Shown here one piece after another: positions 28,083 through 64,000 of a stretch of DNA of 64,000 nt. Both the position numbers and the translations under genes were made by a program. Positions within the stretch are counted from its first letter, which is position 1. Every line of letters starts with the position of its first letter. The stretch covers positions 3,697-67,696 of the forward strand of contig JBJXHC010000038.1 of NCBI GenBank assembly GCA_046160825.1, given 5' to 3'. Below the pieces are notes generated by a model. The model searched no databases, was not told the DNA's origin, and was given only the letters and a program-made list of their open reading frames with translations. Source of the DNA: Bacteroidota bacterium. Its GTDB lineage: Bacteria > Bacteroidota > Ignavibacteria > UBA10030 > UBA6906.

Positions 28083-28871
28083 ATGGGCTGGGTGAAGGAG
28101 CTTCTGCAGAAGCTCTCGGGAAAACCACAGATTACCACCTCGAGAGACCAGGAAGAAGCACAGAAGGATCTCCTGCGGAGTAACACGAAGAACTTTCAAC
28201 GCCTGATCGGGTATCCCATCAGAAATCAGGACGTATTCGTACAAGCGCTGTTACACCGCTCCTTTCTCACACGCGTCAACCGTCCGATCCGTTCCAATGA
28301 ACGCCTTGAGTTTCTTGGCGACTCCATTCTCAATCTCATCGTTGCAGAATATCTCTATCATAACTACCCCGATGCCGAAGAGGGTGAGCTGACAAAGGTC
28401 CGTTCCCGACTTGTCAACAGGAAGGCGCTCGCGGCATACGCGAAGGACATTAAACTGTCGGATTTCATTCTCATGAGCAGCAGTGCTGCCCAATCCATTG
28501 GCAAAGGTTCCGAGACAATTATCGCCGACACGTACGAAGCGGTTATTGCCGCCATTTATCTGGACGGCGGCTATGATGCTGCGCGGCGGTTTGTCGAGCG
28601 ACAGGTTCTCGCTGCTCTCAAGACCGGCTCTGTCATTACAAAGGACGAGAATTACAAAAGCATGCTGTTGGAGTTCTCCCAGTCGCATGGATTCGGCATT
28701 CCACGCTACGTGATAACGAAGGAAGATGGGCCGGACCATGATCGAACTTTCACTGTGGATGTGCTGTTGAATAATGAGCGCAAAGGCTCCGGTGCCGGCA
28801 AGAACAAAAAGGAAGCCGAGCAGGCCGCGGCGAATAAAGCACTGATGCAATTGGAACATAAAACAGACTAA
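28083..28871 (+). CDS. rnc: Ribonuclease III
   Basis: It has the RNase III signature [15 protein letters not shown] and a C-terminal dsRBD. Confidence 0.9.
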
Positions 28872-50725: not shown

Positions 50726-51354
50726 CTGCGTTTCGCCTTCCGGGAATCAAGTATCAACACGAGCATGTTGCCTTTCCCTACACTCACTTTGAAGGGCGAG
50801 CGAACAGCGACATTTGAAACCCCGATCTCACCAACGGTCATCCGCGCATTTGTAAGCGGGTATTTCAATCCGCTCAATGTTATTCCGGAACAAGACCCGA
50901 ATGGAATGAGGCTTACCGTCGCCCCGCGAGCGACCCGGCGTATGAGCTTTCGTTGTATGGGGAACGCCTGCCATCCATCACCAGCTACGGTGATATTTAT
51001 TTTCCCGGCATACTTCCACAGAACCGAGAGATTGCCAAGAGTAAAATCGAGTCGGCGACCGGTCGCGGCGACGATCACGACATTCTTCACCCGCGGGGAG
51101 AGAATGTCCAATGCCTTTTCAAGATCCGTATTGTCCTGCCGCTTCACGTGAATGATAAGAGAAGATGCAAAGTGTTTTCGGGTTGAGGCGCGCAACGAAT
51201 CGAGGTCGCCGATGATAATATCCGGACGCACGCCTGAGACTCGTGCAGAGTTCGCTCCGCCATCCGCGGCAACAATCAGATCCGCCGCACGGGCATGACG
51301 ACGAAGCAAAGTGCGGGATGGGGGTTCACCGTTACAGATTACGAGTGCTTTCAT
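50722..51354 (-). CDS. thiN: Thiamine pyrophosphokinase
   Basis: ALVICNGEPP, IVAADGGAN, IIGDLDSL and RQDNTDLEKAL are the TPK catalytic-domain motifs. The start was trimmed to the MKALVICNG Met. Confidence 0.8.
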   Translation of the reverse strand: MKALVICNGEPPSRTLLRRHARAADLIVAADGGANSARVSGVRPDIIIGDLDSLRASTRKHFASSLIIHVKRQDNTDLEKALDILSPRVKNVVIVAATGRRLDFTLGNLSVLWKYAGKINITVAGDGWQAFPIQRKLIRRVARGATVSLIPFGSCSGITLSGLKYPLTNARMTVGEIGVSNVAVRSPFKVSVGKGNMLVLILDSRKAKRS

Positions 51355-51361
51355 TGCATTC

Positions 51362-53782
51362 TCAAAGATGAATAGAAAGATTGAAGAACATGTTTCTTTC
51401 TGCCCCAACAAAAAACTGATCACCTTCGCCGTAGGCGGCATAAAGTCTATCAGAGAGATTATTTACCTGTAGCTTCGCCTCAATATTGACATCATCAAAA
51501 AGATCCTCCATTGTATACGCAATCCATCCATCACTCACGAAATATGCGTCGACGGTGTTCGTTTCATTCTTGAAGTTATCTGTATACTGTTTGCCGACAA
51601 ATCTTCCCGCAAGAGACACCGCCACATTTTCATATCGATACGTCACTCGCAGGTTTGCAAGAACATCCGGAAATCCGGCGATCGGATTATTATTCAGACT
51701 GAGCGGACTGTCCGATGAAAAATCCGTGTGCCTGACAAATGAGTTCCGACTGAATGTTGCATTGCCGCGAAGCTCAAGTGACGGAGCGGGTTTATAGGTG
51801 CCCGTGAGTTCAATGCCGATATGTCGCGTGCGGGATGCATTTCCAGTGATAGGCTGACCAAACCGATCCACTTGGCCGCTTTTCACAATTTCATTCGTAA
51901 ACTCCATCCAATACACGTTTGCCGTTGTGCTCACCTCTGGTGCGGAAAACCCGCCGCCAAATTCTATATCAAGTAGCCGCTCCGGTTTCACCAATGGTTG
52001 GTCAAAACTGAATTGACCATTTGCATCAACGGCAAACTGCGGAACAATCGCTCCCCATGATGCGGGGGTGCTCGCTTCCGCCGCATCATACAGGTTCTTC
52101 AACCGCGGTTCGCGGGAGGTGTAAGCAAGGCTGAGATAGGTGTTCCACTTCTCATCAAGATTGTAGTTGATGCCAATCCGGGGATTCAGGAAATGGTATG
52201 GAACCGCAAAGTTCGTATTCAAGAATTTCTCGTCGTGGAGACGGTAACAATTAAAGACGTACTGCAAATTCACCATGAGGTTGAGATCAGGCTGAAGAGA
52301 GTAAAGTTCGTGGGCGTAGAACGAGATAATGTCCTTTGCTCCTTTGTACTCGTAATAACGATAGTCCTCGGGAATGGAGACTGGGCTCATATCAACGCGC
52401 TGAAGTCTTCCCCAGTGGAGCGACCGGTGGAAACGCACCTCGGCACCGGCGATGAATTCCCCATCGTCGTGCTTCAGAGTTATCCTTGGCAACCAGCCGA
52501 ATTGTTTGTTTTTCACTGTTGCGCGAATCAGCGCACTGCCAAAGTACAGGGTATCGGGATCACCAACAATACTGAACCCGTTTCCCTGCGTGAGTCGATA
52601 ATACGAGAACGGTGCCCACGTTCCATCATAGTCGAAAAATCCGTCGCCAAGGATGATGAATGCTGTATTATTCAATGTCAGCGTAGGGGTCAAGCGCCAC
52701 TCATGTAGCAACTCATAATGGGGCTGGGAGAAATTCTCCATTTCCTCTTCGCGAAGGATTGGATTTGTGCGCCGCTTTGATTTGTCCTTCACGTCCAACT
52801 TGGGAATCCCATAGTAGGCAAGATGGTCGGAAATCGGTCCGCCATAGAAGTTCACCTGTGTCGTCATGCTTTCATCGTAGCGAATCGCACCGAAAAAATA
52901 ACTATTGAAATCAACCCAGGATCGGTCACGGTAGCCGCTGCTCAGAATCTTGGAAAGCCGACCGTGTAGCGCGTAGCGATTCTCGATCAGCCCGGAGCTG
53001 AACGACGCGGAGTATTTTCGAGTGTTAAAGCTGCCAACGCCCGCCGATAGGCTGAGCTCTCTCTTCCGCCCAAAGCTTGAGGTCACAAGATTGACAGAAC
53101 CGCCGATGGCCGGAGATCCATAGAAGGCACTCCCCGCTCCCCGCTGTACCTGTATATCCTCCAGACTCCCGGCAATGTCGGGGATATCCAACCAATAAAC
53201 ATTGTGATCTTCAGGATCGTTCTGAGGAATACCGTTAACCATCACGGCAATACGGCGTGCATCAAAACCGCGGATATTCAGATATGTATAGCCAATGCCA
53301 TTGCCCGCATCGGAGTAGTACGTTGTCGAGGGAAGTTCGGAGAGAAGGACAGGAATATCCTGCGTTGTGTATTGATCTCGTATATCCGTCCTGCTGAGTG
53401 TGGAGAATGTGACCGGTGTTTCGCGCTCACGACCTCGTGTACCACTTACCGTAATCGGCTGACCCGTAATCATGGTTGGTTCAAGCGTGAAGTCGATGGA
53501 TACGCCTTCCGTCGTCACGTCAACTCGTTTGGTTCTTGCAGCATAACCCACGAATGACACCCGGATTTCATACGCACCGGGAAGAACACCATCAATGCGG
53601 AATTCACCGGTGGCGTCTGAGAACGCGCCAAGCTGTGTACCGATAACGGTAACGTTTGCTCCGGGAAGGAGATTTGATGTGGCGGCCTCACGCACTTTGC
53701 CGGCGATGAATGCTGGTGTTTGTGCGAACGACAGAGGCGCGGCAAACAACAGAATGATCAGAATAGCAGAGAACCGATTCAT
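51362..53782 (-). CDS. TonB-dependent outer-membrane receptor (with an N-terminal carboxypeptidase-regulatory-like domain)
   Basis: It has a signal peptide, a plug and a 22-strand barrel, and ends in the terminal aromatic NLSIHL. It is 806 aa. It lies directly downstream of a TPP riboswitch. Confidence 0.9.
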   Translation of the reverse strand: MNRFSAILIILLFAAPLSFAQTPAFIAGKVREAATSNLLPGANVTVIGTQLGAFSDATGEFRIDGVLPGAYEIRVSFVGYAARTKRVDVTTEGVSIDFTLEPTMITGQPITVSGTRGRERETPVTFSTLSRTDIRDQYTTQDIPVLLSELPSTTYYSDAGNGIGYTYLNIRGFDARRIAVMVNGIPQNDPEDHNVYWLDIPDIAGSLEDIQVQRGAGSAFYGSPAIGGSVNLVTSSFGRKRELSLSAGVGSFNTRKYSASFSSGLIENRYALHGRLSKILSSGYRDRSWVDFNSYFFGAIRYDESMTTQVNFYGGPISDHLAYYGIPKLDVKDKSKRRTNPILREEEMENFSQPHYELLHEWRLTPTLTLNNTAFIILGDGFFDYDGTWAPFSYYRLTQGNGFSIVGDPDTLYFGSALIRATVKNKQFGWLPRITLKHDDGEFIAGAEVRFHRSLHWGRLQRVDMSPVSIPEDYRYYEYKGAKDIISFYAHELYSLQPDLNLMVNLQYVFNCYRLHDEKFLNTNFAVPYHFLNPRIGINYNLDEKWNTYLSLAYTSREPRLKNLYDAAEASTPASWGAIVPQFAVDANGQFSFDQPLVKPERLLDIEFGGGFSAPEVSTTANVYWMEFTNEIVKSGQVDRFGQPITGNASRTRHIGIELTGTYKPAPSLELRGNATFSRNSFVRHTDFSSDSPLSLNNNPIAGFPDVLANLRVTYRYENVAVSLAGRFVGKQYTDNFKNETNTVDAYFVSDGWIAYTMEDLFDDVNIEAKLQVNNLSDRLYAAYGEGDQFFVGAERNMFFNLSIHL

Positions 53783-53833: not shown

Positions 53834-53863
53834 GAAGAAAAAGAGCGGGAACAATTCAGGTTG

Positions 53864-53948
53864 CCGTTTCCCTACGCTGGTATGGTCCAGATCAGGTTCT
53901 TAGGGTGTGATCTCAGTCCCACGTTTATTGGTGGGACACCCCTAACGG
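53864..53948 (-). promoter_or_regulatory. TPP (thiamine pyrophosphate) riboswitch aptamer (THI element)
   Basis: The minus-strand RNA reads CCGUUAGGGGUGUCCCACCAAUAAACGUGGGACUGAGAUCACACCCUAAGAACCUGAUCUGGACCAUACCAGCGUAGGGAAACGG. The conserved CUGAGA and ACCUGAUCUGGA..ACCAGCGUAGGGAA elements are present. The P1 helix is CCGUU/AACGG. Confidence 0.85.
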
Positions 53949-54002
53949 ATTTCGTAAGCAATATACCGACTCCGTGGTCGTATTGCAACCACGGATGAGG
54001 GT

Positions 54003-55412
54003 TCAGTACAAAGATTCTATCCTAAAGGCCCGGTACAGATTATATCCGGGGTTATCGACGGCGACTTCCCATTGCACAACTCCCGCGCTGTTCACTTCGA
54101 CGACGCGTTGGGCTGAGCCGAAACAAACCACGGTGTTGTCGTTCTCTAGTCGTTGTGCGAATCCCATGATGTTGCCGAAGAGCGAGGGCGAATGGCGATA
54201 TTCCCACACCATTTCTGCCACCATCGTTGACTCGTTGAGACGATACTCCACAGCGCGACTGACCGGCGGTGAATGTAAATTCCCATTGTCGAACAGGATG
54301 ATGTTACCGTTCGGCAAACGACGGATACCGTGTTGATGCGAGAATCCGTTGAGCGGATCGTTGACGAACGTGAACTGGTTGTTCTCGCCTCCCAGCCGCC
54401 AGATGATCTCACCTGTCTGCACGCTAATCTTGGTGATCTCGTCCATGTTCCTGAAGGATACCAGCAGGTTCCCGTCGTTGTCAACATCAATTGCATTGGA
54501 ATGCCACGGATTGACGTTCACACCCGTGATGCTGATATCAGAGACCGCATCGGTAATCTGGAGATGGTCGAATGTATTCCAGAAGAAATTGGGTTGGCCG
54601 TTTCTGATATATTCGATGGTCATTCCACGCACAATGGCGTTTGCCTGTCCACCGATGGCGGTCAGACTCGAATCCCTGTACTCAGCACCATAAAGACAAT
54701 GCGCACCGCCGTACAACCGCAGCTCATGTGCCCCTGTTTCTTCTCCTTGAAGAGTGGAGTATTGACCGAGAACATTCCCCAAGCGATCCAACTCGTAGAA
54801 AGCAAGATCGCTATCAATATTCGAGAAGACAGTGTACGTACCGGGGAATTGTTGCTGGAAGTCAATGACTGCACCAAGGAATTCTTTGTACCAGACAATG
54901 TGCCCGAGGTTGTCAAGAATCACCGCCGCATTCCATTGTCCCGCACCTGCGCCGGAAACGCCGATCATGACGTAGCCAGGCGTGGGCGACTGACTCCCGA
55001 TCAATGTAAAGTCAGGAAGGTTGTCAGGCAAAGGGTCTGTTGCAAAGAAAGTCTGGTCGCCGGTTGCCGTCTCGCCGCTGGCAGCCCATGCTTTCGCTCG
55101 AAGCTGGTACGTTTGATCCGGTCTGAGTCCAAGAACTGGCACCTCGGCAACTGAATCAACAACCGCAACGGAAGCGGTTTCGGATGTTGCGAGGGAATCA
55201 TTCCAGTATTCAATAGACACTGAAGCGGCATTTGCAGTACGTACGATAACCTTCGCGCTGAGGACGTTGTGCTCATTGGGCTGCACGACGAGAGAAATCA
55301 CACTGGGCGGTGGCCCCGCTTGTGGCGGTCCTTCCGGATTTTCGGAACAACCGGCAACCAATGCAACCGCGAATATGAGAGCATACAGAATGATTCCAAG
55401 CATTGATTTCAT
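54003..55412 (-). CDS. Beta-propeller lipoprotein, arylsulfotransferase (ASST)-like
   Basis: The lipobox is LVAGCSEN. Repeated propeller blades and the motif NNQFTFVNDPLNGFSHQHGIRRLPNGNIILFDNGN resemble ASST-family proteins. The family assignment is tentative. Confidence 0.45.
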   Translation of the reverse strand: MKSMLGIILYALIFAVALVAGCSENPEGPPQAGPPPSVISLVVQPNEHNVLSAKVIVRTANAASVSIEYWNDSLATSETASVAVVDSVAEVPVLGLRPDQTYQLRAKAWAASGETATGDQTFFATDPLPDNLPDFTLIGSQSPTPGYVMIGVSGAGAGQWNAAVILDNLGHIVWYKEFLGAVIDFQQQFPGTYTVFSNIDSDLAFYELDRLGNVLGQYSTLQGEETGAHELRLYGGAHCLYGAEYRDSSLTAIGGQANAIVRGMTIEYIRNGQPNFFWNTFDHLQITDAVSDISITGVNVNPWHSNAIDVDNDGNLLVSFRNMDEITKISVQTGEIIWRLGGENNQFTFVNDPLNGFSHQHGIRRLPNGNIILFDNGNLHSPPVSRAVEYRLNESTMVAEMVWEYRHSPSLFGNIMGFAQRLENDNTVVCFGSAQRVVEVNSAGVVQWEVAVDNPGYNLYRAFRIESLY

Positions 55413-55486: not shown

Positions 55487-56857
55487 CTACTGATGCAGAG
55501 ACTTGAGGTTTGCCATAAGTTGTTCTGCTCTGCTCCAGTCCAGCGTTTCCACGGTGGTAATGGTGGAGCAGAGTTCTTCCAGAATCGCCTCCTGGACCTT
55601 TCCACGTGAGAGCGCCACTGCATACGGAATCCGATGGAATGTCACCATCGAGTATTTGGGGATGAACTTCCCCGGGAACCTCTGATGAAGTGCCTGTTCG
55701 ATTTTTTTCTTCAATAGAAATTTGGGCTGTGCGACCAGATCCCTCATCTCAACAAAATTCTCGACAGCCAGATCGGCGATAGCATCAGTATTGATCTTTC
55801 GTGCCCGCTCATATTCCCCAAACACCGATTCCCACCACTCTTCTCCGATCTCCGTCTCCAATTTCTTGCCAATGATTTCATTCAGGTATGTGCAATCTTC
55901 GAACGCACAGTTCATGCCCTGACCGAAGAACGGGACGATGGCATGGGCTGCATCGCCGAGCAGCGCCATCCTGCCACCGACATGCCATGGAGAGCATTTG
56001 ATAGTTACCATCGTCCCGGTGGGGTTGGCGAAAAACTGATCGACAAAGTCGGGCATGAGAGCAACGGCATCGGGAAAGTGTTCGTGGAAGAATGCTTCCA
56101 CTCGTCCCGGGGTATTCAAGGTCTTAAAACTTATCGCTCCTTCATGCGGGAAGAAGAATGTACACGTGAAGCTTCCATCAATATTCGGAAGAGCGATCAA
56201 CATGAATGTACCGCGTGGCCAAATATGCAACGCGTGTTTTTCGAGCAACCACGCTCCCATTGGGCCAGCCGGAATGGCAAGTTCTTTATGGCCGTACTCA
56301 AGGTATTGTTGGGATGAATTGAATTGGGGGAGTTCCTCCATTGCGGTGCGCAACGCCGAGGCCGAGCCATCCGTTCCAATCACCGTACCGGCTTGATCAG
56401 TGATATGTTCCCCACTTGTTTCATCGATCAGCTCGAGTTCTCCGCTTGCAAGATTCATTCCTGTACACTTGCGGTTGAAATGCAGTTTGACGTTGGGCAA
56501 CCGTTCTGCAGCATCCATTAACGCCATATTCAGTTGGCTGCGCGAAGTCGCGTAGATTACCTCTGTGTCATCCTTGCCGTATCGCTGAAACGTCAACTCA
56601 CCAGACACTGCGTGCATCATTCTTCCCTTCATCGGGATGGCGATTTTCATGACCTGTTCAAGAACTCCGACTTCCTTCAGCGCATGGATCCCGCGGGTGG
56701 ATAAGGCAAGATTGATGGAGCGGCCGCCGCCGATGCTGACCTTCCGCATGTCCGGTCGCCGCTCATACACATCAACGTCAAAACCGCGTCTTGCCAGATA
56801 GATCGAGAGTAGCGAGCCTGCCAGTCCGGCTCCTACAAGTGACACACGTTTGTTCAT
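55487..56857 (-). CDS. kmo: Kynurenine 3-monooxygenase
   Basis: It is a FAD monooxygenase (VSLVGAGLAGSLLSIYLARRG; GDAAHAIVPFFGQGMN) with the KMO-typical length and a C-terminal extension. Confidence 0.85.
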   Translation of the reverse strand: MNKRVSLVGAGLAGSLLSIYLARRGFDVDVYERRPDMRKVSIGGGRSINLALSTRGIHALKEVGVLEQVMKIAIPMKGRMMHAVSGELTFQRYGKDDTEVIYATSRSQLNMALMDAAERLPNVKLHFNRKCTGMNLASGELELIDETSGEHITDQAGTVIGTDGSASALRTAMEELPQFNSSQQYLEYGHKELAIPAGPMGAWLLEKHALHIWPRGTFMLIALPNIDGSFTCTFFFPHEGAISFKTLNTPGRVEAFFHEHFPDAVALMPDFVDQFFANPTGTMVTIKCSPWHVGGRMALLGDAAHAIVPFFGQGMNCAFEDCTYLNEIIGKKLETEIGEEWWESVFGEYERARKINTDAIADLAVENFVEMRDLVAQPKFLLKKKIEQALHQRFPGKFIPKYSMVTFHRIPYAVALSRGKVQEAILEELCSTITTVETLDWSRAEQLMANLKSLHQ

Positions 56858-58125
56858 TCCATTTCTTTCCCGAGGATCTTCACAAATTCAAACACATCGC
56901 TGAACGTGTTATACAGTGGCACGGGAGCTACACGAATAACGTCCGGTTCGCGCCAATCGCAGATAACACCCTGCCGTGTCAACGATTCAAAAACCACCCG
57001 ACCCTTTTGGCCGATCTGTAGGGAGAGCTGGCAACCACGCTGGGACTGATCGGATGGAGTGAGAATCGAAACGCCGGGTAACGCCCTCAGGAGAAACTCC
57101 AGGTATCCCGTCAGCTTCTCACTTTTTGCTCTGAGCATTGTCATACCGGCCTCATCAAAGATTTCCATCGAGGAACGCAACGCTGCCAGCGGAAGAATTG
57201 ACGGATTGCTCAGTTGCCAACTCTCCGCCCCCGGTATCGGATCAAACTCAGCGAGCATCTGAAAACGTGTGCTCTTGTTGTGTCCCCACCAACCGGAGAA
57301 CCTGGGAAGATCAAATGATCGGGCATGGCGTTCATGAACAAAGCACCCGGCGGTGCTGCCCGGACCGGCATTCAAGTATTTATATGAACACCAGACCGCG
57401 AAGTCCACACCCCAGTCATGGAGATGAAGCGGGATATTCCCGGCAGCGTGAGCAAGATCGAATGCGACGATACAACCTTTGGTCTGAGCTGACTTCGTGA
57501 TGCGCTCCATATCAAACACCTGACCCGTGTAATAGTTGACACCGCCGAGAAGAATGAGCGCAGTCGCCTCTCCCTCGATCTCAAGCATCTCCTCAATGTC
57601 TTCGATGCGAAGGGTTGTCTCTCCTGGTCGTGGGGAAAGCTCAACCAGTGAACGCTCCGGATCGAATCCATGGAACTTGATCTGGGATTTCACCGCGTAT
57701 TGATCGGAGGGAAACGCCTGTTGTTCAATAATGATTTTATGACGCAGTATGGTCGGACGATAAAACGATACCATCATCAGATGGAGGTTGACGGTGAGGG
57801 TGTTCATTACCACAACTTCCGAAGGCAATGCGCCGACAAGCCGCGCTGTTTGCTCGGTCAACAATTCGTGGTATGGCATCCAGGGATTCTTCGCGTGAAA
57901 GTGCCCCTCGACGCCAAGTCTGGCCCAATCCTCCAACTCCTGTTGAACGTACGCGCTCGCAGTCTTTGGCTGAAGACCAAGCGAGTTGCCGCAAAGATAG
58001 ATTGCTTCCTTGCCGGCTTGCGTCTTTGGAATAAAGAATCGGTTCCGATATGGTCCAAGCTGATCTGTCGAATCCGATTCAACCGCAAACTGCTTGTCCG
58101 TCTTAAATGACATCAACTGTTCCAT
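56854..58125 (-). CDS. kynU: Kynureninase
   Basis: It is a class-V fold protein with CSYKYLNAGPGSTAGCFVH (PLP-Lys region), about 420 aa. A 4-nt overlap joins it to kmo. Confidence 0.9.
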   Translation of the reverse strand: MEQLMSFKTDKQFAVESDSTDQLGPYRNRFFIPKTQAGKEAIYLCGNSLGLQPKTASAYVQQELEDWARLGVEGHFHAKNPWMPYHELLTEQTARLVGALPSEVVVMNTLTVNLHLMMVSFYRPTILRHKIIIEQQAFPSDQYAVKSQIKFHGFDPERSLVELSPRPGETTLRIEDIEEMLEIEGEATALILLGGVNYYTGQVFDMERITKSAQTKGCIVAFDLAHAAGNIPLHLHDWGVDFAVWCSYKYLNAGPGSTAGCFVHERHARSFDLPRFSGWWGHNKSTRFQMLAEFDPIPGAESWQLSNPSILPLAALRSSMEIFDEAGMTMLRAKSEKLTGYLEFLLRALPGVSILTPSDQSQRGCQLSLQIGQKGRVVFESLTRQGVICDWREPDVIRVAPVPLYNTFSDVFEFVKILGKEME

Positions 58126-58132
58126 TGCTTTT

Positions 58133-58169
58133 GACTAACGACTCTACAGACTCTCAACTCTATAGACTG
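58133..58169. repeat. Intergenic 9-bp tandem-repeat element (copy R0; units ACTCTACAG / ACTCTATAG)
   Basis: GACTAACGACTCTACAGACTCTCAACTCTATAGACTG lies between the dinB stop and the kynU start. It is in the reverse orientation relative to the R1 left arm. Confidence 0.6.
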
Positions 58170-58174
58170 ATTTG

Positions 58175-59392
58175 TTATTCATCAAAATCAAAATCCTCCG
58201 GCGAGGGGATATTGGTGAAAGCAATACGCGTCGGGGCTGCTGCCTGCAATGCGTGCATACCACCGAAATGCAGCAGATGGCCCCCGTATTTCGTGTTGAG
58301 TTTGTCCATCGCCTCCGAGAGTCGCGTGCGCTTCACTTCGTCAGAAAATAACGAGAAGTTATGCGCCGAGTCATGGACGAGGTCGAACAGCGTCACGCCG
58401 ACTGCCAGCAGCTTGCCTTGCGGCAGATTCTTCCAGAGTTTCTGCAGGGCTTCGAGGAGCGTGAGTGTATCCTGACTTTCAACGAATGAAATATGATCCG
58501 TCCAGGATGTGCGGTTCATGAATTTCACGTCCACCCTCAAGTGCGATGCCCAATAGTGCATGCGCCGGAGTCGCGCGGCGGCCTTGTGCAAGAGTTGCTG
58601 TGCGATGGCAAATGCATCCGTTGGCGTTCTCATCTTCGGAGGCAGGACATGCGAATGCCCGACGGTTCGACGACGCGTCAGGGTCTCCGTGAGATCTTCA
58701 CCACGCAACCAGTACCAATATCGCTCGCCGATAATCCCCTGCCAGATATTCTTCATCTCAGGCTTTGAGAGATTCAGTAATTGCTCGGCTGTCACTATCC
58801 CCCTCTGAGCAAGCCGTTTCTCCATATTCGCGCCAATGCCGGGGAAATCACGTGTCTTCAAAGGATACAATTTCTGCGGCAGGTCAGCCTGAGTAATGAC
58901 AACGAGGCCATCCGGCTTCTGCATGTCACTCGCCACCTTTGCAAGGAACCTGTTGGTCGCAATTCCAACCGAACAGCGCAACATTTCACCGACATCAGCA
59001 TAGATCGTCTGCTTGATCTTGGCCGCCAATGCGACGGCCTTCTCGACTTCGCGCTGGCTGCCTGTGAGTTGACATGCCATTTCATCGATGGACAGCACCG
59101 CTGCAACGGGTACGCAAGATTCAACGGCGGTGACAATCCTTGTGTGATACTCGACGTACTTCGCATGTCGAGCTTCGACAAGCAGGAGGCCGGGACACAT
59201 CTTCTTCGCATCACCAACGCGTGTGCCTGTCTTCACGCCAAATGCCTTGGCTTCATAGCTTGCAGCGATACAAAACGTCGTGTCTGCTATCAGCGGAACG
59301 ACGGCAACCGGCTTCCCCCGAAGCTCGGAACGCAGTTGCTGCTCGACAGAAGCAAAATAAGAATTGAGATCGACAAGAAGCCAGCGAACCAA
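58175..59392 (-). CDS. dinB: Y-family DNA polymerase (DNA polymerase IV-like)
   Basis: LLVDLNSYFASVEQ, SIDE and the thumb/little-finger organisation are present. It is 405 aa. The start codon is TTG as given in the track. Confidence 0.8.
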   Translation of the reverse strand: MVRWLLVDLNSYFASVEQQLRSELRGKPVAVVPLIADTTFCIAASYEAKAFGVKTGTRVGDAKKMCPGLLLVEARHAKYVEYHTRIVTAVESCVPVAAVLSIDEMACQLTGSQREVEKAVALAAKIKQTIYADVGEMLRCSVGIATNRFLAKVASDMQKPDGLVVITQADLPQKLYPLKTRDFPGIGANMEKRLAQRGIVTAEQLLNLSKPEMKNIWQGIIGERYWYWLRGEDLTETLTRRRTVGHSHVLPPKMRTPTDAFAIAQQLLHKAAARLRRMHYWASHLRVDVKFMNRTSWTDHISFVESQDTLTLLEALQKLWKNLPQGKLLAVGVTLFDLVHDSAHNFSLFSDEVKRTRLSEAMDKLNTKYGGHLLHFGGMHALQAAAPTRIAFTNIPSPEDFDFDE

Positions 59393-59413
59393 ATCATCCT
59401 CGGATAACTCAAA

Positions 59414-59522
59414 TGGAGTTTGTGGAGTCTGTAGAGTCTGTAGAGTTCATAGAGTTTATGGAGTTTCGGGGTGTCTCTATAGAACTCTATGAACCCCACG
59501 AACTCTCCAGACTCTATAAACT
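59414..59522. repeat. Intergenic tandem-repeat element (copy R1): six forward 9-mers (GTYYRTRGA) followed by an inverted arm, overall palindromic
   Basis: TGGAGTTTGTGGAGTCTGTAGAGTCTGTAGAGTTCATAGAGTTTATGGAGTTT...CTCTATAGAACTCTATGAACCCCACGAACTCTCCAGACTCTATAAACTG lies between the dinB start and the ACMSD stop, which it overlaps. Confidence 0.65.
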
Positions 59523-60512
59523 GCTCTTTCCCAGCCACTCCAACGCCGTCCCACGCAACAATTGCTCTTGTGTTTTCTTATCGAAGCCCAGCGATTCAAT
59601 CAACTTTCCCGGCTCTTGCTCACCGAGCGGGAAAGGATAATCAGAACCGAGAGCTATGCGATTCGCGCCGACAAGCTCAATGAGATACTTGAGCATCGCA
59701 GCATCGTGCGTGAGTGAATCAACGAAGAAGCGGCCGAGGTACTTGCGCGGGTTGACCGGGTTATCAATGGCGACAAGATCAGGACGGACATCAAAGCCGT
59801 GTTCAATGCGGCCGAGCGTTCCGGGAAATGCGCCGCCACCGTGAGCAAATGCAACTCGCAGTTTTGGCAGACGCTCGAACACGCCGCCGAAGATCATTGA
59901 ACAAATGGCAAGCGAGACTTCCGCGGGCATACCAACGAGCCATGGAAGCCAGTACTTCGGCATGCGCTCCTTGCCCATCATATCCCACGGATGGACGAAT
60001 ACGGCCGCTCCCAATTCCTCCGCTGCCTGGAAGACCGGGAACAGATTCGGATCATTCAGGTTCCAGTCGTTCACGTGCGTACCGATTTCTATTCCGGCAA
60101 GACCGAGTTGCTTGACGCAACGCTCCAGTTCTTTGATCGCCAGATCGGGCGACTGCATGGGCACGATACCGAGTCCGGCGAACCGCTGTGGATACGCGGA
60201 AACAACCGACGCGATATGATCGTTGAGAAGCTTGCAGAGATCGTGTGCGTCATTCGGCTTTGCCCAATAACAAAACATCACCGGCACTGTAGAAAGCACT
60301 TGCATCTGCACATCGTGTTGGTCGCATACGCCAATCCGCACCTCCGGACTCCAGAGATTTTCCTCCACGTCGCGGAAGTGCTTCCCATCGATCACCATTC
60401 TCGCACAGCCCGGTTTGTGATGTTCGAGGTTCACAAAGCCGCCATAGCCGTACTTCGCCTTAAAGTCCGGCAGGACCTTGGGAAGAATGTGTGTGTGGAT
60501 GTCGATTTTCAT
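59514..60512 (-). CDS. 2-amino-3-carboxymuconate-6-semialdehyde decarboxylase-like amidohydrolase
   Basis: The amidohydrolase-2 fold begins MKIDIHTHILP and carries HPWDMMG and FAHGGGAFP. The start was trimmed to the MKIDIHTH Met. Confidence 0.8.
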   Translation of the reverse strand: MKIDIHTHILPKVLPDFKAKYGYGGFVNLEHHKPGCARMVIDGKHFRDVEENLWSPEVRIGVCDQHDVQMQVLSTVPVMFCYWAKPNDAHDLCKLLNDHIASVVSAYPQRFAGLGIVPMQSPDLAIKELERCVKQLGLAGIEIGTHVNDWNLNDPNLFPVFQAAEELGAAVFVHPWDMMGKERMPKYWLPWLVGMPAEVSLAICSMIFGGVFERLPKLRVAFAHGGGAFPGTLGRIEHGFDVRPDLVAIDNPVNPRKYLGRFFVDSLTHDAAMLKYLIELVGANRIALGSDYPFPLGEQEPGKLIESLGFDKKTQEQLLRGTALEWLGKSSL

Positions 60513-60520
60513 TCTGTCAT

Positions 60521-61048
60521 TCACACCGGCTTCTGCGGCCTCTCCATCTTCGTCCCGCACTTCTTGCACGTGCAATGCTCTGCGTTGTTGTAGAACTTGT
60601 CGAAGATCGGCGGAAGCTGGGTGACGAGGTTTGTCACTTGCAGGAACTCCTCATACAACTTGTCGCCACACTTCTCGCAGAACCACAAGAAGCCATCAGT
60701 CTCACCGGGCGTCCGCTGGCGCTCAATCACGAGTCCCACTGTATTGGCAGGACGCTGCGGCGAATGCGGCGTCTTCGGAGGCAGAAGGAATATCTCTCCC
60801 TCACGAATCTTGATGTCCCTCGGCTTTCCATCCTCTACAATCTTGACCGTGATATCTCCTTCGACCTGATAGAAGAACTCCTCACCCTCGTCGTAGTGGT
60901 AATCCTTGCGCGCATTGGGTCCACCAACAACCATGACGATGAAGTCGGAATCCTCATACACCATCTTGTTGCCGACGGGGGGTTTCAATAAATGCCGGTG
61001 GTCGTTAATCCATTGCTTAAAATTGATCGGAGGTAGGAGTTTTCCCAT
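60521..61048 (-). CDS. 3-hydroxyanthranilate 3,4-dioxygenase
   Basis: It has a cupin fold with the iron ligands (HYDEGEEFFYQVEGD ... LLPPKTPHSPQR) and a C-terminal rubredoxin-like Cys4 (CEKCG...CKKCG). Confidence 0.85.
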   Translation of the reverse strand: MGKLLPPINFKQWINDHRHLLKPPVGNKMVYEDSDFIVMVVGGPNARKDYHYDEGEEFFYQVEGDITVKIVEDGKPRDIKIREGEIFLLPPKTPHSPQRPANTVGLVIERQRTPGETDGFLWFCEKCGDKLYEEFLQVTNLVTQLPPIFDKFYNNAEHCTCKKCGTKMERPQKPV

Positions 61049-61062
61049 GTAAACCTCTGGCT

Positions 61063-61097
61063 TAGTTTATGGAGTTTGTGGAGTTCATATAGAGTTA
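61063..61097. repeat. Intergenic tandem-repeat element (copy R2, forward orientation)
   Basis: TAGTTTATGGAGTTTGTGGAGTTCATATAGAGTT lies between the HAAO start and the four-helix-bundle gene stop. Confidence 0.6.
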
Positions 61098-61460
61098 TGT
61101 GCTTCTGAGATACTTGATGAGTCCTGAGATCATTCGTGAGATTTCATTACAATCGGAATAGAGTTTATCAAACGATTCCTGCGTGATGTATCGCTGGTCC
61201 ATTGCAACATAGAGTGCGGCTTGGACTTCAGCAGTTGAGCCATGTGCCACGAAAAGGAACTGACTGAATTCTTTGTTCGTTCTTCGAGCAAAGCCTTCCG
61301 CAATGTTCAACATAATCGAAACCGAAGCTCTTCGAATCTGATCCCGCAATCCAAAGTCCTTGGTGAACTTGCCGTCCGCGGTAATCCTGTAGACCTCACC
61401 AACGAGTTCTCTTGCTTTCTGCCATGCAAGTATGTCGTCGAACCTCTCGAACTTCGCCAT
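61095..61460 (-). CDS. Four-helix-bundle protein (23S rRNA intervening-sequence-protein family, TIGR02436-like)
   Basis: It is 121 aa. MAKFERFDDILAWQKARELVGEVYRI is typical of the family. Confidence 0.7.
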   Translation of the reverse strand: MAKFERFDDILAWQKARELVGEVYRITADGKFTKDFGLRDQIRRASVSIMLNIAEGFARRTNKEFSQFLFVAHGSTAEVQAALYVAMDQRYITQESFDKLYSDCNEISRMISGLIKYLRST

Positions 61461-61505
61461 CCCAACTCCATAGACTCCACGAACTCTATGAACTCTAAAA
61501 CACTG
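61461..61505. repeat. Intergenic tandem-repeat element (copy R3, reverse orientation)
   Basis: CCCAACTCCATAGACTCCACGAACTCTATGAACTCTAAAACACTG lies between the four-helix-bundle gene start and the RidA stop. Confidence 0.6.
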
Positions 61506-61511
61506 TCTCCG

Positions 61512-61931
61512 CTAAACCACTGCAATCACCTTCAATTCTATCGCTATCGGCGTTGGTAGCGCGTTTACTTCGATGGTCGTGCGACACGGCTGGTTGTCTT
61601 TGAAATATTCGGCGTAGATCCGGTTGAACGTCGGGAAGTCCTTTTTCATGTTGGTGAGAAACACAGTCACATCCACAATCTTACCCCAACTTGAGCCGGC
61701 ATCTTCGAGAATTGCCTTCACGTTTTTGAATAGCGAATGGCATTGTGCTTCGATGTCATAGGAAACGATGTTACCATTGGCATCAAGTTCCACACCGGGG
61801 ATTTTCTCCATCCCGCGTTCACGCGGCCCCACGCCGGAAAGAAAGAGAAGATTCCCCACCTTGCGCGCATGCGGATACAAGCCGACCGGTTCCGGTGCAT
61901 TCGAAGACATGATATTGTCAGACTGACTCAT
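61512..61931 (-). CDS. RidA-family protein (2-aminomuconate deaminase-like, from context)
   Basis: It has the RidA fold (GNLLFLSGVGPRE ... ELKVIAVV). It sits between the aldehyde dehydrogenase and the dioxygenase/decarboxylase genes. Confidence 0.7.
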   Translation of the reverse strand: MSQSDNIMSSNAPEPVGLYPHARKVGNLLFLSGVGPRERGMEKIPGVELDANGNIVSYDIEAQCHSLFKNVKAILEDAGSSWGKIVDVTVFLTNMKKDFPTFNRIYAEYFKDNQPCRTTIEVNALPTPIAIELKVIAVV

Positions 61932-61954
61932 TCGCTCTCGACCAACGGCTAATT

Positions 61955-61990
61955 GACTCTATGAACTCCATAAACTCTAAGAACTTATAG
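61955..61990. repeat. Intergenic tandem-repeat element (copy R4, reverse orientation)
   Basis: GACTCTATGAACTCCATAAACTCTAAGAACTTATAG lies between the RidA start and the ALDH stop. Confidence 0.6.
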
Positions 61991-63427
61991 TTTCACACAC
62001 ACATTCTTTGGTTCTGTAAAAAACCGCAACGCTTCCCATCCCCCTTCACGACCAAGACCGGAGTTTTTCATTCCACCGAACGGCGTCCGTAAATCTCGCA
62101 GCATCCAGCAATTCACCCAGACGATGCCGGAGTGAATCTCCGCCGCAAGGCGATGAGCGCGCGTCAGGTTCTCCGTCCATATAACCGACGCAAGGCCGTA
62201 CTGTGTGCTATTCGCGTTCTCCAATGCTTCCTCCTCGGTATCAAATGGCGCAATCGTTACCACCGGACCGAAGATCTCCTCCTGGTTCGTCCGGCAATGG
62301 GATGGCAACCCTGCGATCACAGTCGGCTCGATGAACCACCCGTCTGTGCAACGCCCCGCAAGCTTCACCTGATTTCCACCACAGAGTATTGCGCCTCCCT
62401 CCTGTTTCGCCAGGGAGATGTATGACATAATTTTTTCGCAGTGTTGTTGTGAGTTGATGGCACCAAGGTCACTCGTTGCCTCCGTCGGGTCGCCTACTCG
62501 GAGCTGCTTTACGCGTGCAACAAAGTCCTTCTTGAACTTCTCATACAATGACTTCTCAACAAGAATGCGCGAACCGCACAAACAAATCTCTCCTTGATTT
62601 TGAAATGACGATCGCACAGTGGTCGTCAACATCTCCTCGTAGTTGCAATCGGAAAAAATAAGAACCGGATTCTTGCCGCCCATTTCGAGTGAAAGCTTCT
62701 TGAACATCGGCGCCGCTGTCTTCGCTATCTCACTGCCGGTCTTTGTGCCGCCGGTAAACGTGACGACGGGAATCCCCGGATGCTTCGCAATTGCCGCTCC
62801 AACCTTGTGCCCATATCCATGCACAATATTGAGAACCCCGGCAGGAAGACCGGCTTCAATGCAGAGCTTCGAGAGCATGAACGCAGTCATGGGTGTTAAC
62901 TCGGAGGGTTTGCCGATAACGCAGTTTCCCGCAGCAAGCGCCGGGACGATCTTCCAGGTGAAAAGATACAGGGGAAGATTCCAGGGGGAAATTGCGCCGA
63001 CAACACCGATGGGCGTGCGCAGGGTGTAGTTGAGCGCGGAACCTGCGGTTGGATGAGCTTCGCTCGCAAAATGCAAAATTGCTGTGGCAAAGAACCGGAA
63101 GTTGCTGATTGCGCGCGGAATATCAACACTACGCGCGAGGTGAACGGGTTTTCCATTGTCCACAGACTCAGCAAGAGCGAACTGTTCCAAATCGCGTTCG
63201 AGCAGGTCGGCAATACGAAGTAGGATGCCTGAGCGACCTTCCACTGAGCTCTTCGACCACGAGGGGAACGCGCGCGCTGCGGAATCAACTGCGCTGCCCA
63301 CATCGCTCTCATCGGAGTCCGGCACAAGGGAATAGACACGCCCCATTGCAGGCTCGTAGTTATCAAAATACTTGCCGGAGATCGGGGGACAAAGGTTGCC
63401 GGTGATGTAGTTGGAGATTTTTTCCAC
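61985..63427 (-). CDS. NAD-dependent aldehyde dehydrogenase (2-aminomuconate-6-semialdehyde dehydrogenase-like)
   Basis: It is 480 aa with the ALDH catalytic Cys region (GEICLCGSRILV) and Glu motif (LEMGGKNP). Confidence 0.85.
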   Translation of the reverse strand: MEKISNYITGNLCPPISGKYFDNYEPAMGRVYSLVPDSDESDVGSAVDSAARAFPSWSKSSVEGRSGILLRIADLLERDLEQFALAESVDNGKPVHLARSVDIPRAISNFRFFATAILHFASEAHPTAGSALNYTLRTPIGVVGAISPWNLPLYLFTWKIVPALAAGNCVIGKPSELTPMTAFMLSKLCIEAGLPAGVLNIVHGYGHKVGAAIAKHPGIPVVTFTGGTKTGSEIAKTAAPMFKKLSLEMGGKNPVLIFSDCNYEEMLTTTVRSSFQNQGEICLCGSRILVEKSLYEKFKKDFVARVKQLRVGDPTEATSDLGAINSQQHCEKIMSYISLAKQEGGAILCGGNQVKLAGRCTDGWFIEPTVIAGLPSHCRTNQEEIFGPVVTIAPFDTEEEALENANSTQYGLASVIWTENLTRAHRLAAEIHSGIVWVNCWMLRDLRTPFGGMKNSGLGREGGWEALRFFTEPKNVCVKL

Positions 63428-63506
63428 AGAAAATAATTCTACTTGAGGAATGGAAAACGAAGGATCCCTTACGAGCCTCTCCCGCGTTATTTCTCAGTGC
63501 TCATCG

Positions 63507-64000
63507 TTATCGTTGAGAATAATAAAATCCGAGGTTCTTTTTCACGCCATCCGGCAACTGTGGCAAGCGCGAACGCGGAATCAGGAACGTTGACAGGTTG
63601 AACAGGTCGGTGAAGATCTTATACTTGTCCACGGTTGCCTTGAGATAATTGTAGCCGGTGGAACCACCTGTGCCGATCTTATTGCCGATCATCCGGTGCG
63701 CCATCAATGCGTGGCGGTAGCGCCATGTTGTCCATTGTTCATCCATATCCATCAACACCGTCAGCAAGCGGAACGGAATGTGAAGGATCGGTTCGTCGCG
63801 ATAAAGAGCAATCAGAAGCGCAGCCTTGGTGGCCTTGTGTGAAAGCCGTCGCTTCCCGTGCTCCACCAAATCACGGTGCTTCGATTCATCAATCAACGCG
63901 GCAAAGTTTTCTTCGTTCGCTTTCACCTCATTCAATTGCTGCTGCTTCTCTTCTTCTGAAGAAATCGCATTGCCCAGAATTGCGCCTCTGTCGCCTGCAA
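63507..64000 (-). CDS. kynA: Tryptophan 2,3-dioxygenase, C-terminal part (the N-terminus lies beyond the window end)
   Basis: LIALYRDEPILHIPFRLLTVLMDMDEQWTTWRYRHALMAHRMIG...GGSTGYNYL is a TDO signature. The frame stays open to the window edge. Confidence 0.85.
   Translation of the reverse strand, partial: AGDRGAILGNAISSEEEKQQQLNEVKANEENFAALIDESKHRDLVEHGKRRLSHKATKAALLIALYRDEPILHIPFRLLTVLMDMDEQWTTWRYRHALMAHRMIGNKIGTGGSTGYNYLKATVDKYKIFTDLFNLSTFLIPRSRLPQLPDGVKKNLGFYYSQR

Follow-up and report, generated by a model that had tools for sequence, protein, structure and literature searches.

A DinB-like polymerase gene, a four-helix-bundle gene and repeat arrays in a probable tryptophan catabolic operon of an uncultured Bacteroidota bacterium

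A stretch of 64,000 nucleotides from an uncultured Bacteroidota bacterium (hereafter the window) contains what is probably a chromosomal operon of a known kind for aerobic tryptophan catabolism, in which a translesion polymerase gene is an old acquisition and small selfish cassettes accumulate in the spacers. Genes were identified from open reading frames and by comparison with Pfam, NCBIfam and the PDB. Nine co-directional minus-strand genes were found, encoding TDO, an aldehyde dehydrogenase (ALDH), a RidA-family protein, a four-helix-bundle (4HB) protein, 3-hydroxyanthranilate 3,4-dioxygenase (HAO), ACMS decarboxylase (ACMSD), a Y-family polymerase, kynureninase (KynU) and kynurenine 3-monooxygenase (KMO) (Table 1). 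The same one-strand set, with TDO partial at the window edge, had been proposed in a sequence-only reading of this DNA and was confirmed.

Table 1. Genes and repeat arrays of the operon, in window coordinates
Feature	Position	Strand	Evidence or remark
TDO, C-terminal part, ~163 aa	63507..64000	-	PF03301 (Trp_dioxygenase); ORF cut by window end
ALDH, 2-aminomuconate-6-semialdehyde dehydrogenase (AMSDH)	61985..63427	-	Pfam Aldedh 544 bits; PDB
9-nt-period array, ALDH/RidA spacer	61955..61986		GAGU-type in mRNA
RidA/YjgF-family protein	61512..61931	-	PF01042 102 bits
9-nt-period array upstream of 4HB, one inverted arm	61464..61497
4HB protein, PF05635 '23S rRNA intervening sequence protein'	61095..61460	-	PF05635, TIGR02436
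9-nt-period array downstream of 4HB, other inverted arm	61063..61093
HAO, 3-hydroxyanthranilate 3,4-dioxygenase	60521..61048	-	PF06052 212 bits; TIGR03037
ACMSD, ACMS decarboxylase, eukaryote-like	59514..60512	-	PF04909; PDB
Two opposed 9-nt arrays, ACMSD/DinB spacer	59416..59523		Hairpin, 40-nt arms, no ORF inside
DinB-like Y-family DNA polymerase	58175..59392	-	Pfam IMS, IMS_C, IMS_HHH_1; PDB Pol IV 7yll
9-nt-period array, DinB/KynU spacer	58135..58168		Homologous to the DinB/KynU spacer of L206
Kynureninase (KynU)	56854..58125	-	TIGR01814 483.5 bits vs cutoff 246; KYNU_C
KMO, kynurenine 3-monooxygenase	55487..56857	-	PF01494; PDB

The polymerase gene between ACMSD and kynureninase

The polymerase shares the IMS palm/finger, thumb and little-finger domains with E. 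coli-type DinB/Pol IV and archaeal Dpo4 (PF00817, 130 bits; PF11799, 41 bits), and its nearest solved Pol IV, 7yll, was matched at E 7e-33 with only 117 bits. When the protein is aligned to solved Pol IV, the three catalytic acidic residues (Asp, Asp and Glu) and the aromatic steric gate coincide, with D8 and D103-E104 at the motifs VD(M)D and SIDE. D8, D103, E104 and Y12/F13 were invariant among nine aligned DinB orthologues. Judged by these residues, the polymerase is catalytically intact. It differs from Pol IV and Dpo4 in having a UmuC-like D-x-N in motif I and a conserved C-terminal extension of ~50 aa. Assignment to a Pol IV (DinB) equivalog was rejected, as all ten NCBIfam models fell below cutoff (best PRK03103, 209.7 bits versus 381), and the protein is most accurately called a DinB-like Y-family polymerase (DinB below). 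The E. coli dinB gene is a LexA-controlled SOS gene. It shares its operon with yafP, also an SOS gene (PMC3105422), whereas the window gene sits inside a catabolic operon.

Orthologues of DinB were found in the same slot between ACMSD and KynU in the related loci L206 (80% identity, beside 78% for ACMSD, 75% for ALDH and 70% for KynU), L211/L212 (70%), L207 and L208 (69% each), and L209 and L213 (68% each). Together with the window, seven assemblies carry DinB in this slot at mutual identities of 65-87%, a sample collected by DinB homology and therefore silent on the number of genomes in the clade that have DinB in another place. The DinBs from inside the operon group as a single clade, itself made up of two subclades. 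These patterns show that DinB was captured once, in the clade ancestor, with vertical inheritance afterwards. Since capture it has been inherited as a co-directional, closely spaced member of the operon, and throughout this lineage of uncultured Bacteroidota it belongs to the operon as a fixed member, a feature that is unreported, to judge by the literature consulted. Because of its position, spacing and strand, DinB is most likely co-transcribed with the pathway genes. A scan for sigma-70-type promoters, a model that may not suit Bacteroidota, returned nothing above chance.

As to why the gene has been kept, a little under half of our confidence lies with DinB being a neutral hitchhiker. The lineage's housekeeping Y-family polymerase gene would have landed here with no tie to tryptophan catabolism, and would persist because its loss would remove the cell's copy and expression in the operon is adequate. 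An Ignavibacteria MAG does encode a free-standing homologue of the same family (65-66% identity) in an unrelated gene context, and the spacers of the operon also house plainly unrelated passengers (toxin-antitoxin genes, DUF2281 and 4HB). Moreover, DinB is missing from the operon in three close relatives (L201, L202 and L204) and is therefore not needed for the pathway. However, the slot has stayed constant in seven assemblies, spanning two subclades with 65-72% identity, whereas other passengers come and go, and DinB is very tightly spaced in L207, with spacers of 15 and 23 nt (121 and 49 nt in the window, where they hold structured repeats). Constant slot and tight spacing are compatible with selection for co-expression and do not prove it. 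More tentatively, the reason that we prefer for the retention of DinB is putative lesion bypass against pathway intermediates that may damage DNA. The candidate agents are two o-aminophenols that auto-oxidise (3-hydroxykynurenine and 3-hydroxyanthranilate) and two enal semialdehydes (ACMS and 2-AMS).

The route encoded by the pathway genes

The TDO fragment covers positions 218-346 of the 346 in PF03301 (E 1.1e-43), and full-length orthologues in syntenic relatives measure 349-365 aa. HAO exceeded the NCBIfam cutoffs of TIGR03037 (266 bits, cutoff 146) and NF009763; ACMSD and ALDH reached no curated NCBIfam equivalog cutoff. The sequence-only reading had named the grouping of ALDH, RidA or ACMSD with unrelated pathways as evidence against it, and the best solved relatives of ALDH and ACMSD turned out to be kynurenine-pathway enzymes. 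Specifically, the top seven PDB matches of ALDH were AMSDH structures, including 4npi/4i1w (E 8e-139), and ACMSD matched the human enzyme 4ofc at E 4.5e-147 from residue 1 (the P. fluorescens ACMSD scored 243 bits); its start is likely the ATG at 60512 rather than the TTG at 60575. For RidA, a 2-aminomuconate deaminase (6izh) came second-best at E 1.6e-22, with generic RidA proteins scoring similarly. Most clusters also keep the RidA gene flanked by ALDH and HAO, and this position supports its probable role as the 2-aminomuconate deaminase. KMO likewise had kynurenine 3-monooxygenases (6fox/5fn0, E 6e-100) as best solved relatives, the next family being tropone monooxygenase (only E 4e-11); the beginning of its gene and the end of the kynureninase gene share 4 nt.

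The operon would thus serve aerobic tryptophan catabolism by the kynurenine/3-hydroxyanthranilate route, as had been proposed, with the gene set encoding the steps to 2-aminomuconate and then deamination. The predicted order is TDO, (formamidase), KMO, kynureninase, HAO, ACMSD, AMSDH and the RidA-family deaminase, taking tryptophan through N-formylkynurenine, kynurenine, 3-hydroxykynurenine, 3-hydroxyanthranilate, ACMS and 2-aminomuconate semialdehyde to 2-aminomuconate, with a side branch to quinolinate and NAD by spontaneous cyclisation of ACMS. The description of the pathway as complete held for TDO, KMO, kynureninase, HAO, ACMSD and AMSDH and failed for kynurenine formamidase, which had already been noted as unrecognisable in the window, as was borne out: the cyclase-type KynB of related clusters had no tblastn match anywhere in the 64 kb, and ten other mid-size ORFs of the window proved to be from unrelated families. 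The formamidase gene may be located beyond the window. The window also holds none of the enzymes acting after deamination, and complete catabolism is therefore putative.

It is unlikely that the cluster works mainly in de novo NAD synthesis via quinolinate, which would employ TDO, formamidase, KMO, kynureninase and HAO. Four of these enzymes (TDO, KMO, kynureninase and HAO) are all in the cluster, a NudC-like Nudix gene and ApaG come after KMO in the second subclade, and the bacterial route from tryptophan to quinolinate is established (Kurnasov et al. 2003, as cited in PMC10143591). On the other hand, nadC was not seen in the cluster, and the conserved ACMSD, AMSDH and deaminase in the operon draw ACMS off quinolinate (PMC10143591).

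The four-helix-bundle gene and the repeat arrays

The 4HB protein scored 128.6 bits against PF05635 (cutoff 33.8) and 125.6 bits against TIGR02436 (cutoff 24). Among the relatives, L201, L202, L209 and L213 lack its gene, L204 has it in two pieces, and L211 carries it in the DinB/KynU slot. Cross-phylum homologues have 64-68% identity overall, those of Geotalea (68%) and Chloroflexi (66%) being as close as the syntenic copy in L206 (68%), and a 92% copy lies on another contig. The repeat elements mentioned in the earlier reading are real: the 9-nt unit GAGTYYRTR had 13 matches versus 0 expected in 64 kb, all of them in five spacers of the operon, and the arrays occur nowhere else in the window. 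Inverted arrays surround 4HB in the window, L204, L206, L207, L208 and L211, with unit sequences that differ.

The inverted arms around the window 4HB are 82-86% complementary. In the ORF-less hairpin between ACMSD and DinB the arms are 83% complementary and the RNA fold reaches -47.5 kcal/mol (z -5.65, 0 of 200 shuffles as stable). Pairing of the flanks was found at z <= -3.4 in 8 of 13 4HB cassettes; the window cassette itself did not differ significantly from shuffled sequence (duplex z -0.9; whole-cassette fold z -0.48). Array-bearing contigs held 12 4HB genes in 0.68 Mb versus 0 in 1.37 Mb of control loci, and about 108 of the 120 array-bearing metagenome contigs had no 4HB gene adjoining the array. 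These results point to a small putative cassette of fixed polarity, made up of a 5' GAGTYYRTR-type array, the ORF and a complementary 3' array, which probably comes and goes among the spacers of the operon and among phyla. Its arms have probably been copied, whole or as remnants, into four more spacers, among them the one with the ORF-less hairpin.

The name of PF05635 comes from intervening sequences that carry an ORF inside 23S rRNA genes (Leptospira type), reportedly described by Ralph and McClelland in 1993. The window protein belongs to the same family, above curated cutoffs, and in both cases the ORF is framed by inverted repeats able to pair once transcribed. Since the arms can pair in mRNA, like the inverted repeats of rRNA intervening sequences, RNase III-type processing of the 4HB cassette is plausible. 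In contrast to the rRNA elements, the host transcript is an mRNA operon, and each arm consists of 7-9-nt units in tandem, with a unit sequence that varies by cassette. An rRNA intervening sequence proper was rejected, as 4HB lies between two protein-coding genes and Rfam detected no rRNA in the window. The DGR accessory protein Avd was rejected as well (NF033474, 19.6 bits versus cutoff 80; PF22296, 25.5 versus 40). Apart from weak similarity to that four-helix-bundle fold family, the cluster differs from a DGR in having no reverse transcriptase or template/variable repeat, and all neighbours of 4HB are pathway enzymes.

The sequence-only reading took dinB and 4HB together as recent insertions in a recombination-active, recently remodelled locus, which as a whole we find improbable. 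In its favour, inverted 9-nt arrays bracket both genes in the window, neither gene occurs in any of 80 distant loci, spacers are compact (8-28 nt) in the two closest DinB-free relatives, and 4HB and other small genes differ between relatives. Recent remodelling is a reasonable description of the 4HB gene and the arrays, both of which vary among relatives. For dinB it is contradicted by the slot common to seven assemblies, the single clade and the mutual identities given above. Furthermore, DinB in L207 is flanked by short spacers with no arrays, and the arrays are therefore not the ends of a DinB element.

A known kind of cluster with unusual contents

The pathway cluster itself is of an ordinary, widespread and already known kind. 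All six core genes (ALDH-RidA-HAO-ACMSD-KynU-KMO) were co-directional in 48 of 80 genome loci, with block order and the position of ALDH conserved, in Acidobacteriota, Alphaproteobacteria, Bacteroidota, KSB1, Gemmatimonadota and others. The earlier view that such a complement is rather uncommon in bacteria is not tenable in light of these loci and of clusters already in the literature. According to PMC10143591, these include reports by Kurnasov et al. (2003), Colabroy and Begley (2005), who treated a Burkholderia tryptophan catabolic cluster with a RidA-type 2-aminomuconate deaminase, and Lima et al. (2009), who treated eukaryote-like genes in Flavobacteriales/Xanthomonadales. The window shares with bacterial kynurenine clusters TDO, KMO, kynureninase, HAO, ACMSD, AMSDH and a probable RidA-family deaminase, its TDO and ACMSD being eukaryote-like. 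It differs in that its spacers hold the 4HB cassette and 9-nt arrays, that the lower pathway past deamination is not in the cluster, and that cyclase-type KynB, present somewhere in 21 loci and between ACMSD and KynU in a dozen related ones, is missing, with the Y-family polymerase occupying its slot.

The window locus is orthologous to those of its closest relatives. Its downstream flank (ASST, TonB receptor, TPK and SSF) matches L201 and, more fully, L202. Upstream, an HDAC-like gene is common to L201, L202 and L206-L209, and SfsA to L201, L202 and L206-L208, the L209 locus beginning inside the HDAC-like gene. The only Rfam match in the window was a TPP riboswitch.

That HAO-ACMSD-ALDH-RidA is an aromatic meta-cleavage block (such as 2-nitrobenzoate or 2-aminophenol degradation) is barely credible: Pseudomonas fluorescens KU-7 does have the HAO/ACMSD/AMSDH trio in its route for 2-nitrobenzoate (Muraki 2003, as cited in PMC10143591), and the best NCBIfam model of ALDH is 2-hydroxymuconic semialdehyde dehydrogenase, though below cutoff, but TDO, kynureninase and KMO lie in the same co-directional block with overlapping kynureninase and KMO genes, nitroreductase and mutase are not present, and the window ACMSD is nearer the human enzyme than the KU-7 type.

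As a tryptophan catabolic operon, then, the pathway adds nothing new and is not to be flagged as a rare trait. The main result is comparative, setting an old, stable polymerase capture against fast-turnover passengers (the 4HB cassette and toxin-antitoxin genes) in the same spacers. A stronger proposal, which we regard as doubtful, joins a pathway-coupled translesion polymerase with PF05635 4HB genes and their arrays as a distinct class of mobile cassette; no earlier report of either was found in the literature consulted. Under it, DinB would be under selection, switched on with tryptophan breakdown and tolerating lesions from aminophenols and enal semialdehydes, and polar inverted-array cassettes would insert in operon spacers and leave ORF-less hairpins. 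If true, this would be metabolism-specific DNA-damage tolerance wired at the operon level, and the 4HB cassettes would generalise the rRNA 'intervening sequence' to mRNAs. If the polymerase is co-induced with tryptophan catabolism, the operon would offer a natural, testable case of damage tolerance tied to a genotoxic metabolic route. The 4HB proteins, a very large family without known function, gain a concrete point of entry in three features of the cassette: its polarity, which is fixed, its inverted arms of periodic repeats, and the derivatives that lack an ORF.

The kynurenine operon and its relatives

Nine minus-strand ORFs with short spacers run from position 55487 to the end of the window. 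Profile and structure-database searches identified them as the nine-gene kynurenine cluster that a previous sequence-only reading had claimed (see table). The genes for kynureninase (KynU) and kynurenine 3-monooxygenase (KMO) overlap by 4 nt, and the ACMSD start was placed at the ATG at 60512 because human ACMSD aligns from residue 1. A grouping of the aldehyde dehydrogenase (ALDH), the RidA-family protein or ACMSD with other pathways, which would have refuted the earlier reading, was not seen: kynurenine-pathway enzymes are the best solved relatives of ALDH and ACMSD, and such an enzyme ranks second for the RidA-family protein. The window ACMSD scored 493 bits against human ACMSD and 243 bits against the Pseudomonas fluorescens enzyme (a twofold difference), and its TDO scored higher with the long Pfam model (150 bits) than with the bacterial TIGR03036 model (54 bits). 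Judged from these scores, the two predicted proteins agree with the eukaryote-like kynurenine genes reported from Bacteroidota.

Features of the window and of related loci
Feature	Locus	Position	Strand	Evidence
RNase III gene	window	28083-28871	+	
SSF transporter	window	49322-50725	-	
Thiamin pyrophosphokinase	window	50722-51441	-	
TonB-dependent receptor	window	51362-53782	-	
TPP riboswitch	window	53852-53953	-	Rfam RF00059, 73.8 bits
ASST-like lipoprotein gene	window	54003-55412	-	
KMO	window	55487-56857	-	PF01494; top solved relatives all kynurenine 3-monooxygenases, E 6e-100; next family E 4e-11
Kynureninase	window	56854-58125	-	TIGR01814, 483 bits vs cutoff 246
Array, DinB-KynU spacer	window	58135-58168		
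Y-family polymerase (DinB)	window	58175-59392	-	IMS, IMS_C, thumb
Array, ACMSD-DinB spacer	window	59416-59523		
ACMSD	window	59514-60512	-	human ACMSD, E 4.5e-147, aligned from residue 1
HAO	window	60521-61048	-	two NCBIfam equivalogs above cutoff
Array, 4HB-HAO spacer	window	61063-61093		
4HB	window	61095-61460	-	PF05635 / TIGR02436
Array, RidA-4HB spacer	window	61464-61497		
RidA-family protein	window	61512-61931	-	2-aminomuconate deaminase is second-best solved relative
Array, ALDH-RidA spacer	window	61955-61986		
Aldehyde dehydrogenase	window	61985-63427	-	top 7 solved relatives are 2-aminomuconate-6-semialdehyde dehydrogenases, E 8e-139
TDO, C-terminal 163 aa	window	63507-64000	-	PF03301, E 1e-43
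HDAC-family gene	L201; L202; L206; L208	5990-6913; 6001-6912; 2684-3613; 376-1299		
Short-chain dehydrogenase	L206; L207; L208; L209	4805-5593; 5146-5934; 2471-3259; 3491-4279		
ApaG and Nudix	L207; L208; L209; L211; L213	13927-14882; 11942-12912; 12067-13052; 11254-12191; 9421-10397		
Expanded HAO-ACMSD region	L211; L212; L213	616-4948; 2211-6543; 1946-4020		
Arrays 3' of operon	L204; L206	14459-14602; 12548-12664		

A kynureninase scan with one genome per species returned more than 573 relatives, and the best 80 loci were analyzed. The ALDH, RidA, HAO, ACMSD, KynU and KMO genes were co-directional in 48 of these 80, with TDO also on the same strand in 33 of the 48. Hosts of the six-gene loci were Acidobacteriota, Alphaproteobacteria, Bacteroidota, KSB1, Gemmatimonadota, Chromatiales and others. 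Clusters of this type, including the RidA-type deaminase, have already been described (Kurnasov 2003; Colabroy & Begley 2005; Muraki 2003; Lima 2009, as cited in PMC10143591), and a 2026 preprint (10.64898/2026.06.05.730449) treats the deaminase. The pathway is of a known and common type, and its occurrence across phyla together with the published clusters contradicts the earlier view that it is uncommon in bacteria.

Syntenic loci were found through HAO and DinB homologues. Contigs L201 and L202 (HAO identity 88% and 85%, respectively) share the flank downstream of the window's operon. This flank is complete in L202 (ASST, TonB receptor, thiamin pyrophosphokinase, SSF transporter); the L201 contig ends after ASST and a second, uncharacterised gene. 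Both operons have the compact order HDAC-like - TDO - ALDH - RidA - HAO - ACMSD - KynU - KMO, with no polymerase, four-helix-bundle (4HB) gene or arrays and with RidA-HAO and ACMSD-KynU spacers of 8-28 nt. The window thus carries the ortholog of this locus, with additions.

The ASST-like (arylsulfotransferase-like) lipoprotein gene lies 74 nt 3' of KMO in the window; L201 and L202 also carry ASST 3' of KMO, at 52-53% identity and behind a DUF6265 gene. The TPP riboswitch heads the TonB-dependent receptor, thiamin pyrophosphokinase and SSF transporter genes, probably a thiamin-salvage operon, in a gene order also seen in L202. DinB-bearing relatives and three genome loci (L001, L002, L007) carry a 262-aa short-chain dehydrogenase between TDO and ALDH, and one 57-63% identical lies directly 5' of ALDH in L012, L038 and L052, where there was no TDO match. 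The gene is absent from the window, where the TDO-ALDH spacer measures 79 nt. Loci of the second DinB-bearing subclade have, 3' of KMO, genes for ApaG (DUF525) and a zinc-ribbon Nudix protein (NudC-like NADH pyrophosphatase), a hint of a connection with NAD metabolism; the window has neither gene at this place.

As had been stated from the sequence alone, the window holds no recognisable formamidase. The cyclase-type KynB of related clusters had no match anywhere in it, and ten mid-size ORFs from other parts of the window fell into unrelated families. Cyclase-type KynB occupies the ACMSD-KynU slot in a dozen distant loci and lies elsewhere within the locus in nine more. Replacement of a formamidase by DinB in this slot was rejected for the window's lineage, because in the closest DinB-free relatives, L201 and L202, the spacer is only 8-15 nt and holds no cyclase. 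Six relatives (outside the window) carry a gene for an HDAC-family amidohydrolase (PF00850) 5' of TDO and co-directional with it; a secreted-protein gene separates the two in L207 and L209. The HDAC-like gene and the cyclase-type KynB of other lineages never occur together in one cluster, and 40 clusters have neither. The HDAC-like protein is a weak candidate for the missing N-formylkynurenine formamidase.

The polymerase within the operon

The polymerase is DinB-like but scores below all curated Pol IV cutoffs; it shows a D-x-N motif like that of UmuC, and its C-terminal extension is conserved. All DinB homologues of at least 68% identity with readable context occupy the ACMSD-kynureninase slot on the same strand. 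Identity to the window's DinB is 80% in L206 (no less conserved there than ACMSD at 78%, ALDH at 75% and KynU at 70%), 70% in L211 and L212, 69% in L207 and L208, and 68% in L209 and L213. The neighbours of a 66% homologue from an Ignavibacteria MAG are kinase genes, and all 80 of the more distant clusters (the best 80 of more than 573 kynureninase relatives) lack a polymerase. In a neighbour-joining tree, the seven in-operon DinBs formed one clade with two subclades (65-72% identity between these), and the Ignavibacteria DinB-like protein fell outside it. Residues D8, D103 and E104 never vary, and neither does the aromatic steric-gate position; the spacers around DinB in L207 measure 15 and 23 nt. 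The one slot, the clade, the conservation and the tight spacing show that DinB was captured once, long ago, and has since been inherited vertically under purifying selection; co-transcription with the operon genes is probable. The proposal that dinB is a recent insertion is contradicted by the slot common to these seven DinBs and by their single clade. A scan for sigma-70 promoters and intrinsic terminators found nothing above chance, with a sigma-70 model that may not suit Bacteroidota. No paper joining kynurenine with DinB or translesion synthesis was found in the searched literature, in which the conserved in-operon Y-family polymerase is an unreported variant.

Among the products of the operon are o-aminophenols that auto-oxidise and enal semialdehydes, which are reactive. 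A polymerase able to bypass lesions and induced together with the pathway would help under such conditions, and retention for lesion bypass is the explanation that we prefer, tentatively, on general chemistry. PMC10143591 stresses that ACMS and 2-AMS are unstable. DinB may also be a neutral hitchhiker with no functional tie to tryptophan catabolism, which is at least as likely as lesion bypass and has close to an even chance: L201, L202 and L204 manage without the polymerase, and plainly unrelated passengers occupy the same operon spacers.

The 4HB cassette, repeat arrays and other passengers

The 4HB gene occupies the RidA-HAO slot in L134, L204 (as two split ORFs), L206, L207 and L208 and the DinB-KynU slot in L211, and is absent from the operons of L201, L202, L209 and L213. 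Cross-phylum copies from Geotalea (68% identity to the window) and Chloroflexi (66%) are as close as the same-slot copy of L206 (68%), which points to putative horizontal turnover of the gene. A copy 92% identical to the window's lies on another 84-kb contig.

The repeat elements of the sequence-only reading are real: the 9-nt unit GAGTYYRTR has 13 matches in the window versus none in 100 shuffles, all of them in five operon spacers. In the mRNA sense, GAGU-type units stand 5' of the 4HB gene and complementary ACUC-type units 3' of it. The two types lie back to back in the ACMSD-DinB spacer, with no ORF between, as a hairpin of -47.5 kcal/mol (z -5.65). Inverted short-period arrays flank 4HB in several relatives, with a unit that differs between loci (GGTCYATYT in L204, AGTCCTTWW in L207, GTCATTNG in L211), and cassette flanks pair far better than shuffles in 8 of 13 cassettes. 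The window's 4HB arms are 21-22 nt long and 82-86% complementary; their duplex test against shuffles was not significant (z -0.9), and folding of the whole cassette revealed no long-range stem of significance (z -0.48). The view that the arrays mark the ends of a mobile element carrying DinB was rejected, because DinB in L207 has its two short spacers and no arrays. Other short-period repeats lie 3' of the operon in L204 (an 8-nt GAAATCCG-type array, and CCCACATC units) and L206 (GGAGAC(N) units), so these genomes may commonly carry intergenic arrays of short period and of more than one kind.

Arrays of three or more GAGTYYRTR units are widespread in metagenomes: an exact search returned at least 120 contigs (0.68 Mb), a mixed set that gives no clean census. 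Among the matches listed, most arrays had no nearby 4HB gene and some were long one-way tandem repeats (27 units in L151, 17 in L100), so the pattern is not specific to the cassette; these long one-orientation arrays may be unrelated tandem repeats. ORF-less hairpins like the window's occurred in 14 of the contigs listed. The 4HB profile detected 12 genes in the array contigs (among the matches listed), some nine of which adjoin an array, and none in 1.37 Mb of control loci. The 4HB gene with its 9-nt arrays acts like a mobile cassette. Among known elements, the intervening sequences with an ORF in 23S rRNA genes, from which PF05635 takes its name, come closest to it; the host here is an mRNA. 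By analogy, paired cassette arms could be cut by RNase III, and the window carries an RNase III gene. Almost nothing on PF05635/TIGR02436 was found in the searched literature, where the polar array-4HB-array cassette is an unreported variant.

The HAO-ACMSD spacer has grown to 2.4-4.9 kb in L211-L213 (about 3.3 kb of the insert is visible in L211, whose contig begins inside it). The contents vary by locus and comprise BrnT and PemK toxins, CopG antitoxin, DUF2281, DUF5655, a TPR protein and a conserved 180-aa protein with no Pfam match. The TPR protein is found only in L211 and L212, and L213 has DUF5655 and, as toxin-antitoxin genes, DUF2281 only. In the window's lineage, small selfish genes thus tend to settle in the spacers of this operon. 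The description of the locus as recombination-active is supported for 4HB, the arrays and the spacer passengers but not for the polymerase, an old and fixed member. The initial interpretation as a whole was partly supported, with the pathway and the 4HB and spacer turnover retained and rarity and recent dinB insertion set aside. New with respect to the searched literature are the in-operon polymerase and the array-4HB-array cassette, within a pathway that is itself known and common.
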